Positions 34,634-39,855 of a stretch of DNA of 64,000 bases are shown in pieces. The notes below the pieces were generated by a model. It was not told the DNA's origin and ran no database searches. It saw only the letters and a program-made list of their open reading frames with translations. Every line of letters starts with the position of its first letter. Within the stretch, counting starts at the first letter, position 1. The position numbers and the translations under genes are program-made. This stretch comes from Escherichia coli. Its GTDB lineage: Bacteria > Pseudomonadota > Gammaproteobacteria > Enterobacterales > Enterobacteriaceae. The stretch lies in the NCBI RefSeq assembly GCF_044647545.1, contig NZ_CP172818.1; one strand, given 5' to 3'.

Positions 34634-35380
34634 TTACCGGGCGATGAGTGCGAACACGCCCCAGCCAAAGCATTCCCGCGCGTAGGTCACGTAGCGTTTC
34701 GGCGCGATGTTTAGTTCGGCCCTGACTTCGGCGGCGAAGTCATCGTCAGGATTCGCTTCCAGCCAGCGGCGCATGGTCAGCCATTTTGCGGCTTCATACC
34801 GGTCCCAGCCTTCCTGGTCTGCCAGTACCATTTCCACCACGTCATAGCCGAGATCGTCGAACGCTCCGACAAGTCCTGGCAGCGTCAGGAAATCGCTTGT
34901 CGAGCTGACGCCGCAGGCCTGGGCTATTTCTTCTGTTGCTGGTAGCTGACGCCAGTAGGGTTCGCCGATAAGCATGATCCCGCCCGGTTTCAGGCTTTGC
35001 GCTAGCAGCTCCTCCGCCCCGGCAAACCCACCGGCAATCCATGTCGCGCCGACGCAGGCCGCCACGTCACATTTTTCATTTGCGACGTAACCGGCCGCAT
35101 CGTTATGAATAAAATGTACGCGTTCGCTGACGCCGAGTTCTTCCGCGCGACGCTTTGCCTGCGCGGTGAAGAGCGAACTCATGTCGATGCCAGTCCCCGT
35201 AATGCCATGATCCCTGGCCCAGGTGCAGAGCATCTCGCCCGAGCCGCTGCCGAGGTCAAGAATGCGGGTGCCCGGCTTCATGCGCAGCACGCGACCCAGC
35301 GTGGCGTACTTCTCTTCGGTGAACGGGTTATGGATGCGGTGTTCACTTTCGCTGATGGTAAAAATACGTGGGATATCCAT
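34634..35380 (-). CDS. yjhP: SAM-dependent methyltransferase
   Basis: 248-aa product with methyltransferase motif I (ILDLGSGSG). Confidence 0.85.
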   Translation of the reverse strand: MDIPRIFTISESEHRIHNPFTEEKYATLGRVLRMKPGTRILDLGSGSGEMLCTWARDHGITGTGIDMSSLFTAQAKRRAEELGVSERVHFIHNDAAGYVANEKCDVAACVGATWIAGGFAGAEELLAQSLKPGGIMLIGEPYWRQLPATEEIAQACGVSSTSDFLTLPGLVGAFDDLGYDVVEMVLADQEGWDRYEAAKWLTMRRWLEANPDDDFAAEVRAELNIAPKRYVTYARECFGWGVFALIAR

Positions 35381-35435
35381 TATTTAATTCCTGTTATTGG
35401 GTTAAGCCTTAAAAAGGACACAACAAGATTGTTAT

Positions 35436-35981
35436 TCACGTCAGTGCTCCGGTTTCATCAGGGTCTGCGCACCGGATGTGGCCGGTCAGGGTCATGGGCT
35501 GAGCGGTGAGTGATTGCATCATCCAGCAGGCTTTGTGCTCCTCCGGGATGGGATAAGGTGCCGGATAGCCTTTGTCTCCGGCACAGGGTTCGAACCCATG
35601 TCGGGGGTAATAGGTGGCGTGGCCGAGAACAAAAACCGTCTGGCAGCCCATCAACCTCAGGTGCTCGATGCCAGTGCGTATCAACCGTCCTCCCACGCCC
35701 ATCCCTTGGTATTCCGGTATGACCGCCAGGGGAGCGAGGATGTGCATCAACGGTGAATCCATTTCTCCTTTGAAGGTTGCCCGGGTAAATAAAATATGCC
35801 CGACGGCTTTGCCTTCATACCGGGCTAGCAGCGATAACGCGGGGCGCGCGCTTTCATCCTCAAGTAAAGAGGCCACTAAATCGGCTTCTTTGCTGAAGCC
35901 AAATGCGCGGGTTTCGACTTCCCGGATATCACTGGCATCACTTTTATCTGTGATATGAAAAGTGAAGTGGTGTACTGTCAT
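35436..35981 (-). CDS. yjhQ: GNAT-family N-acetyltransferase (reported antitoxin partner of TopAI)
   Basis: 181-aa product with GNAT core (...QGMGVGGRLIRTGIEHLRLMG...). Confidence 0.85.
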   Translation of the reverse strand: MTVHHFTFHITDKSDASDIREVETRAFGFSKEADLVASLLEDESARPALSLLARYEGKAVGHILFTRATFKGEMDSPLMHILAPLAVIPEYQGMGVGGRLIRTGIEHLRLMGCQTVFVLGHATYYPRHGFEPCAGDKGYPAPYPIPEEHKACWMMQSLTAQPMTLTGHIRCADPDETGALT

Positions 35982-35992
35982 AGAAACTCTCC

Positions 35993-36250
35993 TTAGCGAT
36001 TATCGAGCTGAGCGCGAACTTTATTCAGCTCGGTGGTGTTGATTCGATAGGGCTGGCCATTGACGGACTTGATAAGTTTTTTGGTTTTGAGTTTTTTGAA
36101 GACGGCGAGCGTGCAGTCGGTCAGCAACAGCCCTTCGCGGCTGTAGCATTCAACGGAAGTGACGCGGCCTGAAGAATCGCGGACGTGCGCAATACGTCTA
36201 CCTTTAGCGAGAACGTGTAAGGTATGTTGTTCCTGACGGGATAAATTCAT
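35993..36250 (-). CDS. topAI: topoisomerase I inhibitor toxin TopAI (YjhX)
   Basis: 85-aa product [85 protein letters not shown]; sits 12 bp upstream of yjhQ. Confidence 0.85.
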
Positions 36251-37211
36251 ACTGAAGAACCTATTTAATCATCATGTGCAAAACGTGCAAACACACCGCG
36301 GTGTCCGCATTCGATTTCGGCGCATTGATAATCAGTCCGGCCTGAAAAGGTCGGGGAACTGATTATCGGATGATTACATTCTCCAGCATCAAAGCCTCGG
36401 GTTGAGTTGAAAGGTATTTACGGAGCGAATATTAACACGTAGTTATAGGAGGGATATGTTTCAGTAGAAAAAGTGTGATGTACTTTGGAAATTGAATGCC
36501 AACCCATTTACTGGAAAAGGCAGATGACACTGACGAATGCATGTTGAAGTACGCCTGAAATGGCCTCATCGGCTTTTCCCTTCGGGAGATTATTCTCCTT
36601 TTGTTAAATCCAGAACATAAATATGCTCACCCATCTTCGATGCTTGAAAAATTGAAGCCAATCCTGATAAGTAATTTTTTTGAAAGGGTATTTTCCGGAT
36701 TCACACCGGCTTTGATGAGTGAAAAACCGTTCTCTTTTATTCAGTCAATCGTGGCGGTAATTGCTTCAATTGCATATCCCTGGCGAGCATAAGCGGGACT
36801 GATGGTATAGCCGAGCCAAAACACATCGCATTGCTGACGTAAATAGATATCACCAATCAAAACCTGCGTCATTTGTTGACAATGGCCAATTGAATATCGC
36901 GAGCAAGTGTAAGAACTCCCAGCAAGACCCTGTAAATAATTCTGTGTAACTGCCCACGATTAAAGGTGGTCGCTCAGGCGGTCACCGTATTCGATAATAA
37001 ATGGGTCTGGAAAAAGTGCAGCATCTGGCAGCGTAATGCAGGTAGCCCAGTTCAACTCTCACTACCAGTATGATCCCAAGTTCGAGCGCGGAATGTATCT
37101 GTATGAGCATCGTCGCTGTTTCAATAACATCATCGACTACTGTAACTCACTTTGCTATCACGGTAAGTTGCAGCCTAAAAGAGGGATGGAAAAAGGACGA
37201 TTTTCCCCGCA

Positions 37212-38228
37212 ATGGGATATTTACATATTGATGGTAGAGGCATGAAGCCAAATGGAGGGAGCCGTCATAACCCTCTTGAAGCTGAAACAATAGCAGCATG
37301 GCTGGTGGCACATAAGGATGATATAGAGCGCCATTACGGGGAACCACTGTACAAAGTTGTTGGTGTTGTGACGCCATTTTCGGCGCAGGTTAATGCTATC
37401 AAAATGTCATTGCGTAAGCTGGAAATTAATGGCAAAGACGAGCAGGGTTTACTGACAGTGGGGACTGTGCACTCCTTGCAGGGGGCGGAAAGGGCGATTG
37501 TTCTCTTTTCTCCTGTCTACTCAAAACATGAAGATGGCAGGTTTCTTGATAGCAACAGCACTATCCTCAATGTTGCTGTCTCACGCGCTAAAGATAGTTT
37601 TCTGGTATTTGGCGATATGGACCTTATCGAGATGCAGCCCGCATTTTCGCCGCGAGGGTTATTGGCAAAATATCTCTTTTCTTCAGATAATAATGCGTTG
37701 CAATTTGAGTTTCAGAAACGACAGGATTTAATTTCCGCACATACACAAATTTCAACGCTGCATGGTGTGGAGCAGCATGATGAATTTTTGAACAAGACTC
37801 TTGCCGGAGCTCAAAAGAAAATAACGATTATTTCCCCTTGGTTATCCTGGCAAAAAGTGGAGCAAACGGGATTTCTGGCATCAATGGCTTTGGCCCGTTC
37901 CCGGGGCATTGATATTACCGTGGTGACGGATAAAAACTGCAATATAGCGCATGTCGATGATGATAAGCGTCAGGAGAAACAACATCTGCTGAATGATGCT
38001 GTTGAAAAGCTCAATAAGATGGGTATCGCTACGAAATTGGTTAATCGTGTTCACAGCAAAATTGTGATTGAGGATGAAGAACTGCTGTGTGTCGGATCTT
38101 TTAACTGGTTCAGTGCTACACGGGAAGATAAGTATCAACGATACGATACGTCTTTGGTGTACCGTGGTGAAGGCGTAAAAAATGAAATAAAGGCAATATA
38201 TGGTAGTCTGGATCAACGTCAGCTTTAA
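37212..38228 (+). CDS. yjhR: C-terminal fragment of an SF1 helicase fused to a PLD-type (HKD) nuclease domain
   Basis: 338-aa ORF with helicase C-terminal motifs ([34 protein letters not shown]) and a perfect HKD motif [18 protein letters not shown]; a helicase-like reading frame continues upstream in another frame (37036..37245), so this looks like a remnant of a larger gene. Confidence 0.75.
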
Positions 38229-38810: not shown

Positions 38811-39791
38811 TCACCTTTCGCGCCAAAACTGCAAAATTGCTTCTACAAACCTGTCAGAAATAATCCCTCGACGGGCTGCCGCGCTGAAATGACTGCTTCG
38901 CAGTGCCGTCGTCCAGTTCTCCGGTGACCGGTACGCTGAACCGTAATATCCCGTGCTTAAATCGTCCGGATCTTCATCAGGCGCGTTCGTCAGTCCTCTT
39001 GCACCTTGTTGCTGGAAGTCGACGAAAATAATATTGGCTAGAACATTATTTTGATAATTGCCATAAATAGCTTCATACGCATGAGGGAAATTTTCTTTCC
39101 AGTACCAGGTGGTATCGCCGCAAAACCACGGCGCGTCAGTAATTTTATTAAGCTGAGAATGGTATTGTTTTAGATCCCTACGAAAGGCGTCAACCATATG
39201 ATTAAAGTGTTGAGGGTGTGACGCGTAGTCACTGGTCATTAAGTCAAATTCGCCTTGCATCCAGCATACGCCGAGGAATTTGTTCTGCGGATTTTTTGCC
39301 AGTGCGGCTCGCGTTCTGCTGACTAAATCCTGGTATAGCGGAGTATCCGTTCCCCAACGACAAGCATCATGGCTGGCTCCGTGCCGTTCTGAATATGTCC
39401 CTTCGCTGCCCGCGGTAAAAGCCGATCCGCCACGGCAACACGGAACGATGAGAACCCCTGCATTATCAGGAATAAAGGGCAGTAATTTCCGTGCTATATG
39501 TAGTGCCTGGCCAACGGTGCCGTACTGTGTTTGATGATTCGTTGCCAGAGGATGGTGATAACCCTGCATATCCTGAACATCGTGTGGGCAGTGAGTCAGT
39601 GGAATAATGTCGTTAAAGTGACATGACGGGCCTCCGGGATGTGTATGCGCAAATCTCGCTAATTGTTTAATTCTGGGATGAGGCGCATCTTCCTTGTCCG
39701 GTAATGGTAGTCCTTCGCCATACGCCATGGCATTAGACTGACCAGCAACGGTAAGAACATAGTAATAATCGGGCGATATTATTGCGTTCAT
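38811..39791 (-). CDS. nanS: 9-O-acetyl-N-acetylneuraminate esterase
   Basis: 326-aa product MNAIISPDYYYVLTVAGQSNAMAYGEGLPLPD...; start trimmed from ORF track 39818. Confidence 0.9.
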   Translation of the reverse strand: MNAIISPDYYYVLTVAGQSNAMAYGEGLPLPDKEDAPHPRIKQLARFAHTHPGGPSCHFNDIIPLTHCPHDVQDMQGYHHPLATNHQTQYGTVGQALHIARKLLPFIPDNAGVLIVPCCRGGSAFTAGSEGTYSERHGASHDACRWGTDTPLYQDLVSRTRAALAKNPQNKFLGVCWMQGEFDLMTSDYASHPQHFNHMVDAFRRDLKQYHSQLNKITDAPWFCGDTTWYWKENFPHAYEAIYGNYQNNVLANIIFVDFQQQGARGLTNAPDEDPDDLSTGYYGSAYRSPENWTTALRSSHFSAAARRGIISDRFVEAILQFWRER

Positions 39792-39855
39792 ATAATTTTC
39801 GCGTAATACAAATGACAAATTGATAGCAAGGCCCCTTTACCGGGGCCCTGAAGCG

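Follow-up and report, generated by a model that had tools for sequence, protein, structure and literature searches.

The topAI-yjhQ-yjhP operon of Escherichia coli lies on the minus strand of a 64,000-nucleotide stretch of contig NZ_CP172818.1 (assembly GCF_044647545.1), hereafter referred to as the window, and encodes a topoisomerase I inhibitor, a GNAT acetyltransferase and an S-adenosylmethionine (SAM)-dependent methyltransferase. A sequence-only reading of the window had described these genes as a toxin-antitoxin pair with an attached methyltransferase. This description fits E. coli, where the toxin-antitoxin label is published (PMC4666372), but the hierarchy it implies does not hold across species, with yjhQ intact in only 8 of 80 loci as against 60 with a methyltransferase. 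In Enterobacterales the methyltransferase is the usual cargo of topAI, and the GNAT partner is real and recurrent but dispensable; the pair-plus-methyltransferase framing inverts the family pattern. The locus itself has been described before, as the toiL-topAI-yjhQ-yjhP operon of E. coli K-12, and is a textbook locus rather than a new discovery. The variable methyltransferases and the usual absence of yjhQ are not reported in PMC4666372 or PMC12121999, which treat yjhQP as fixed companions of topAI, and the comparative pattern, including a toiL-like upstream open reading frame (uORF) before solo alphaproteobacterial homologs, is not in the published accounts examined.

Genes found behind topAI

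GTDB was scanned with one genome per species, using a pattern built on a 10-sequence TopAI alignment (a 24-sequence alignment was too divergent), and 587 genomes carried a TopAI relative. Counts refer to the best 80 loci, nearly all of them from Enterobacterales, in which co-directional genes behind topAI were classed by tblastn against reference proteins:

yjhP directly behind topAI: 27 loci
MT-B only (a methyltransferase of 236-241 aa): 11 loci
MT-C (a methyltransferase of 283-297 aa, sometimes fused to YjhP), then yjhP: 7 loci
MT-B then MT-C, with or without a VOC/glyoxalase gene: 4 loci
MT-C only: 1 locus
Intact yjhQ and yjhP, with or without MT-C: 8 loci
Only remnants of yjhQ and/or yjhP: 10 loci
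Nothing co-directional: 12 loci

Overall, intact yjhP was present in 44/80 loci and an intact SAM methyltransferase of any of the three types in 60/80. Intact yjhQ was confined to 8/80, and 66/80 had no trace of it with topAI still intact. Since 34/80 loci combine intact yjhP with no trace of yjhQ and only 8 carry intact yjhQ, most family members have no GNAT neighbor. The three methyltransferase types all carry generic class I methyltransferase Pfam domains and share ~30% identity, restricted to the SAM-binding core. On a rough neighbor-joining tree of leader plus topAI DNA, built without bootstrap, yjhQ-bearing loci were scattered in at least 6 places among yjhP-only loci. The first downstream gene starts ~10 nt past the topAI stop codon, with the junction TAA-GGAG-N6-ATG alike whether yjhQ, yjhP, MT-C or MT-B follows; cargo-free loci have a hairpin terminator at the junction position instead. 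The post-topAI junction has the appearance of a fixed docking site for cargo.

Within E. coli the trio travels together. Among 5426 complete genomes, 1770 carry topAI, 1655 carry yjhQ and 1661 carry yjhP, and 1652 have at least 80% of the whole 2.4-kb stretch in one place. The unity of the three genes assumed by the sequence-only reading is therefore borne out: they are essentially always together in complete E. coli genomes, and yjhP is not often missing from topAI-yjhQ loci elsewhere, as 8/8 species loci with intact yjhQ also have it. Approximately 108 E. coli genomes hold only a divergent topAI (~85% nucleotide identity), which belongs to a second locus type, and as many as 3 topAI copies occur in some E. 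coli genomes. In the one strain inspected for this second type (WCHEC005784, beside the lsr operon), a class I methyltransferase gene lies 10 nt after topAI and there is no yjhQ; the methyltransferase gene is cut by an IS21 element.

Beyond Enterobacterales, homologs were taken from long NCBI contigs and plasmid records; 50%-clustered library representatives on metagenome contigs of ~1 kb gave no context. Alphaproteobacteria contain 5845 TopAI-family proteins at E <= 1e-5, and in 5/5 sampled chromosomal contexts the homolog stands alone, with a convergent gene behind it. A further sample comprised Janthinobacterium and seven loci on plasmids or megareplicons. A YjhQ-like GNAT gene directly follows topAI in Rhizobium, Paracoccus and Janthinobacterium (~30% identity where compared), and in Agrobacterium a gene annotated as GNAT is found 11 nt after topAI. 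Plasmids presented both arrangements: a Salmonella IncF plasmid has a shortened topAI with yjhQ and without yjhP, and an Enterobacter plasmid has topAI with a methyltransferase gene and no yjhQ. Of 72,556 plasmid records, 26 contained the topAI family by tblastn, and several of these 26 are in fact megareplicons or chromosomes with a wrong label. On Microbulbifer plasmid p_2, a topAI homolog is followed by an 83-aa open reading frame (ORF), then by an aminopropyltransferase-like gene (annotation: "bis-aminopropyl spermidine synthase family") and two GNAT genes, a gene set that hints at polyamine-type substrates.

The operon in the window and its leader

The features of the locus in the window are as follows, all on the minus strand:

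topAI (yjhX), 35993..36250, minus strand: 85 aa; topoisomerase I inhibitor, first cistron, host of the Rho-dependent termination site
yjhQ, 35436..35981, minus strand: 181 aa; GNAT acetyltransferase, reported antitoxin
yjhP, 34634..35380, minus strand: 248 aa; class I SAM-dependent methyltransferase, putatively of small-molecule type
yjhY, 34247..34507, minus strand: zinc-ribbon pseudogene of 86 codons, CxxC...CxxC
VOC/glyoxalase-family gene remnant, 34093..34209, minus strand: as annotated by the Prokaryotic Genome Annotation Pipeline (PGAP) in the identical K-12 record
yjhQ-yjhP spacer, 35381..35435, minus strand: 55 nt; holds an AGGA Shine-Dalgarno sequence
topAI-yjhQ junction, 35982..35992, minus strand: TAA-GGAGAGTTTCT-ATG; Shine-Dalgarno sequence of the next gene
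toiL, 36363..36389, minus strand: uORF of 8 codons (MLENVIIR) that has a Shine-Dalgarno sequence of its own; identified in the sequence itself
Leader RNA with pairing of toiL and the ribosome-binding site (RBS), 36246..36392, minus strand: minimum free energy fold

The ORFs of the window give the order topAI, yjhQ, yjhP, and the 2.4-kb region matches K-12-type E. coli chromosomes at 100% identity, with the same three genes annotated there. ORFs and Pfam agree with the earlier identification of an 85-aa TopAI, a GNAT YjhQ and a SAM methyltransferase YjhP on one strand. Similarly, the 12-bp distance given for topAI and yjhQ was accurate in that 11 nt (35992..35982) separate the stop codon from an ATG that begins at the 12th base. 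TopAI matches Pfam PF09857 (YjhX_toxin, UPF0386) over residues 1-85 of 85 (E 2.5e-37, 127.2 bits against a cut-off of 27) and NCBIfam PRK13687 (148.6 bits, cut-off 99).

The distance from the start of toiL to the topAI ATG downstream is 139 nt. The predicted leader fold has a minimum free energy of -57.8 kcal/mol (z = -4.1 against 200 shuffles) and contains 15 toiL:RBS pairs. As in a drug-sensing leader-peptide attenuator, a short uORF with a Shine-Dalgarno sequence is thus predicted to pair with the downstream RBS; for the response to drugs and the involvement of Rho, the evidence is that of the literature. In 74/79 assessable loci the uORF (MLENVII[R]) is placed 135-140 nt ahead of topAI, whatever the cargo. 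In all 13 non-enterobacterial leaders examined, a uORF of 4-15 codons (usually 5-8) begins 115-147 nt before topAI, mostly with a GGAG-like Shine-Dalgarno sequence in front of it. In Alpha- and Betaproteobacteria its peptide often follows M-[LSK]-E-[ILN]-[VA]...R, with examples such as MLEIAVIR, MLEIAGIR, MSEIVAR, MKELAIR and MLELVQNH. The same toiL:RBS architecture was predicted for 20/21 leaders from Gamma-, Beta- and Alphaproteobacteria, with 10-17 uORF:RBS pairs per leader against shuffle means of 1-3. Because uORF and RBS pairing are kept across the leaders of these three classes, uORF-topAI appears to be the conserved core of the family. No Rfam family was found for the leader, nor anything significant in 34000..37000.

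The leader also bears on palindromes described upstream of topAI, to which neither YjhQ nor the TopAI-YjhQ complex bound, electrophoretic mobility shift assays (EMSA) being negative up to a ratio of 100:1 (PMC4666372). One of these EMSA-negative operator candidates of Yamaguchi & Inouye, ACACCGCGGTGT at 36292-36303 on the minus strand, folds into a hairpin inside the predicted leader RNA and so probably represents an RNA feature, not an operator on the DNA.

The three genes have been called "operonic", with termination by Rho within topAI when topAI is untranslated (Baniulyte & Wade, eLife 2025, PMC12121999). Experiments in the same study established toiL as a ribosome-stalling sensor, through which, together with Rho termination in topAI, ribosome-targeting antibiotics induce the operon. 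All three genes were among the most induced in ribosome profiling under tetracycline, and quantitative reverse-transcription PCR and ribosome profiling showed co-induction as one operon, across the yjhQ-yjhP spacer (PMC12121999). Our consensus scan found no promoter-like or terminator-like site in that spacer, no terminator-like site between yjhP and yjhY and nothing after yjhP; the sole minus-strand "terminator" that it returned lies inside the leader. Separate transcription of yjhP, which would have spoken against a three-gene unit, is thus not indicated by the published co-induction or by the spacer. Genomic SELEX peaks near yjhP and yjhX were considered as an internal signal and discarded, as they lie in the sgcX-yjhP and yjhX-yjhS spacers and not between yjhQ and yjhP.

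YjhQ belongs to the GNAT family (PF00583, E 4.8e-12, 46.6 bits against a cut-off of 20.7). Its acetyl-CoA motif Q/RxxGxG/A is present as QGMGVGG and conserved across homologs, and 4ZBG and 4RS2 are the solved structures nearest to it. When compared with other E. coli and with other genera, K-12 yjhQ has a 2-bp deletion between 35471 and 35470 on the minus strand, by which the last 9 residues, DPDETGALT, replace the conserved ALMKPEHWRE (181 versus 183 aa). The published antitoxin experiments used this K-12 allele. A "frameshifted yjhQ" annotated by PGAP beside intact topAI in strain S8 was considered as a natural loss of the antitoxin and rejected, since S8 has the ancestral frame and the K-12 allele is the shifted one. 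A lysine-acetyltransferase screen was likewise set aside as evidence on yjhQ, which it only lists among the plasmids tested.

YjhP scores above the cut-offs of Methyltransf_31, Methyltransf_25 and Methyltransf_11 and carries motif I as LDLGSGSG. Residues D42, G44, G46, G48, D66 and D94, covering motif I together with the acidic positions in motifs II and III, do not vary among 20 homologs. By profile and motifs, YjhP is a class I (Rossmann-type) SAM-dependent methyltransferase. It is identical to PDB 1NKV, and its full-length structural neighbors are small-molecule methyltransferases; MT-B and MT-C likewise have structural or sequence neighbors of small-molecule type.

As noted from sequence before, yjhY is a zinc-ribbon pseudogene with a single in-frame stop, a TAA at 34420..34418 that replaces Tyr30; other E. 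coli and three other genera have TAY there and an intact gene. It is found near topAI in 11/82 loci (two of them E. coli references), either after yjhP or ~1.3 kb upstream of topAI. In Trabulsiella, topAI operons end in an intact VOC gene, of which only a remnant is left in the window. yjhY is possibly a former fourth cistron, and the K-12 operon may in the past have extended further. Around the locus lies decayed island DNA from the KpLE2 region (covering 36741-36872, 37212-38228 and 38811-39818 of the window), where a GNAT gene fragment, the yjhR helicase pseudogene, a remnant of a phosphorothioate-dependent restriction endonuclease and a sialate O-acetylesterase gene are found; some strains have an IS3-family element between topAI and yjhR. 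PADLOC defense models gave no match for TopAI or YjhQ, and for YjhP only the generic methyltransferase domain of mad2; an anti-phage defense reading was dropped on this result.

The role of YjhP and competing explanations

We consider it probable, taking its parts jointly, that the uORF and topAI form a conserved unit with interchangeable enzyme cargo, that yjhP is co-transcribed cargo outside the toxin-neutralizing pair and encodes a small-molecule methyltransferase linked to the sensed stress, and that TopAI is restrained mainly by its expression. Stalling of ribosomes in toiL by tetracycline, aminoglycosides, macrolides or other drugs opens the site and allows topAI to be translated; this translation prevents Rho-dependent termination in topAI and lets RNA polymerase continue into yjhQ and yjhP. 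TopAI binds the TopA-DNA complex, inhibiting relaxation; YjhQ, when co-overexpressed, both binds TopAI and relieves its toxicity. The regulatory steps and the inhibition of TopA are taken from the literature, and the gene hierarchy is what we infer here. The cassette core would be uORF plus topAI, with enzyme genes swapping downstream of TAA-GGAG-N6-ATG; the commonest cargo would be yjhP, and the others two further SAM methyltransferase families, the GNAT gene yjhQ and a VOC/glyoxalase gene. At this position yjhP is probably also translationally coupled. Its product most likely has O-, N- or C-methyltransferase activity toward a small molecule, a metabolite or xenobiotic connected with the translation stress sensed by toiL, because it is co-regulated with topAI, varied enzymes of small-molecule type occupy the site and its structural neighbors are of the same kind. 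YjhQ would be an optional extra brake on a TopAI held back mainly by toiL and Rho. The authors of the regulatory study speculate that yjhQ/P act on the sensed molecule (PMC12121999).

Several observations weigh against this explanation. YjhP orthologs occur without topAI, for example in Thiobacillus. Knockouts of yjhP grow normally, without a clear RNA-methylation (N6-methyladenosine) phenotype, and no antibiotic-susceptibility test of the operon is reported in PMC12121999. Pairs of topAI with a GNAT gene turn up repeatedly in distant lineages as well as on plasmids; the GNAT link is therefore genuine and goes back further than an occasional insertion would. Finally, with nearly all of the best 80 of 587 coming from Enterobacterales, the tally is not a family-wide census.

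A more far-reaching version is conceivable, and we put it forward tentatively. toiL-topAI may be an ancient, portable cassette that links a leader peptide sensing translation stress to a topoisomerase I inhibitor, ranging from Alpha- to Gammaproteobacteria, into whose 3' junction small-molecule-modifying enzymes have been slotted in Enterobacterales. The K-12 operon could then be a cryptic inducible detoxification or resistance operon against a ribosome-targeting natural product, the antitoxin activity of YjhQ a side aspect and the name "YjhX toxin" misleading.

Alternatively, topAI-yjhQ could be a self-contained type II toxin-antitoxin module, with yjhP an unrelated passenger on the same transcript. 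Overproduction of TopAI is lethal, and the protein inhibits topoisomerase I through its binding to the TopA-DNA complex (Yamaguchi & Inouye, NAR 2015, PMC4666372), and co-induction of YjhQ, which co-purifies with TopAI, restores growth (overexpression and PrS-fusion pull-down; PMC4666372). A 2025 study confirmed the TopAI-TopA interaction by co-immunoprecipitation and bimolecular fluorescence complementation and found that topAI copy number influences the growth of an evolved strain; co-expression of YjhQ lowers the mortality of an engineered strain. Pairs of topAI and a GNAT gene without yjhP, on the Salmonella IncF plasmid, on Rhizobium, Paracoccus and Agrobacterium replicons and in Janthinobacterium, also favor such a module. 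However, the pair is not conserved together in the 80 loci, the alphaproteobacterial sample or the second E. coli locus type: topAI stays intact in the 66 loci with no trace of yjhQ, which is intact in only 8, and the alphaproteobacterial chromosomal homologs are solo in 5/5 contexts. Frequent plasmid or mobile carriage is not seen either, given the 26 positives among 72,556 plasmid records, and the negative EMSA speaks against autoregulation by the complex. Moreover, unlike random passengers, the methyltransferases sit at the same 10-nt junction as yjhQ. On this evidence we regard a self-contained module with a passenger as unlikely.

Still less probable, in our estimation, is that the enzymes encoded behind topAI, YjhP included, neutralize or modulate TopAI or TopA by methylation or acetylation in the manner of type VII systems. 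The first downstream gene, of whatever family, does sit at the same coupled junction as yjhQ, YjhQ retains its acetyl-CoA-binding motif and looks active, and TopAI has several invariant Lys/Arg positions. But four unrelated enzyme families are unlikely to converge on a single 85-aa substrate, 12 Enterobacterales loci as well as the alphaproteobacterial homologs lack any partner, and YjhP has small-molecule enzymes as its full-length structural neighbors and orthologs that occur without topAI. That YjhP is an inducible resistance enzyme, methylating rRNA or a ribosomal protein in Erm-like fashion under an ermCL-type leader, is very improbable: control by a drug-sensing uORF closely parallels ermB/ermC and a methyltransferase is among the induced genes (PMC12121999), but YjhP has no match to RrnaAD (Erm/KsgA) or any other rRNA methyltransferase family at E < 0.01, and three methyltransferase families, a GNAT and a VOC protein at one position argue for varied small substrates. 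All three alternatives are less consistent with the distribution data than interchangeable cargo behind a conserved uORF-topAI unit.

Significance and comparison with known systems

The operon raises the question of why a uORF that senses multiple antibiotics controls a topoisomerase I inhibitor plus two enzymes. The comparative pattern makes the purpose of the operon easier to test, as the typical output of the switch is methyltransferases and not the GNAT "antitoxin", and the uORF-topAI pair is the conserved core even where an alphaproteobacterial topAI stands alone. Automatic annotations such as "YjhX family toxin" or "yjhQ-yjhX TA system" usually mark a gene without an adjacent antitoxin. 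If the cargo enzymes do modify a translation inhibitor, they would represent a widespread, silent and inducible resistance determinant in Enterobacterales.

The closest known system is the K-12 operon (PMC4666372, PMC12121999), which is the same locus, alike in genes, uORF, leader and sequence. YjhP itself falls into a structural-genomics family with PDB entries 1NKV, 5BP7 and 5EPE, whose Thiobacillus ortholog does not adjoin topAI. The control exerted by toiL has been compared by its authors to the regulation of ermB/ermC (PMC12121999). In both cases stalling in a short uORF melts a helix masking the downstream RBS, and a SAM methyltransferase is among the induced genes. In contrast to ermC/ermB, toiL answers several drug classes, the first regulated gene encodes a TopA inhibitor, Rho termination within that gene adds a second layer of control, and YjhP lies outside the Erm family.

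Among toxin-antitoxin systems, CcdAB and ParDE similarly comprise a small protein that inhibits a topoisomerase and is neutralized by the product of a neighboring gene. The topAI system differs from them in targeting TopA instead of gyrase, in having the toxin gene first and in an "antitoxin" that is a 181-aa GNAT protein; it also shows no autoregulation by EMSA, its partner is not conserved with the toxin, and it is rare on plasmids. Type VII systems offer a precedent for an enzyme-type antitoxin. AtaT/AtaR, TacT/TacA and KacT/KacA share with topAI-yjhQ a GNAT enzyme in a two-gene toxicity module. In AtaT, TacT and KacT the GNAT enzyme is the toxin and acetylates aminoacyl-tRNA, whereas YjhQ, a GNAT protein with a putative catalytic role, is the protective partner.

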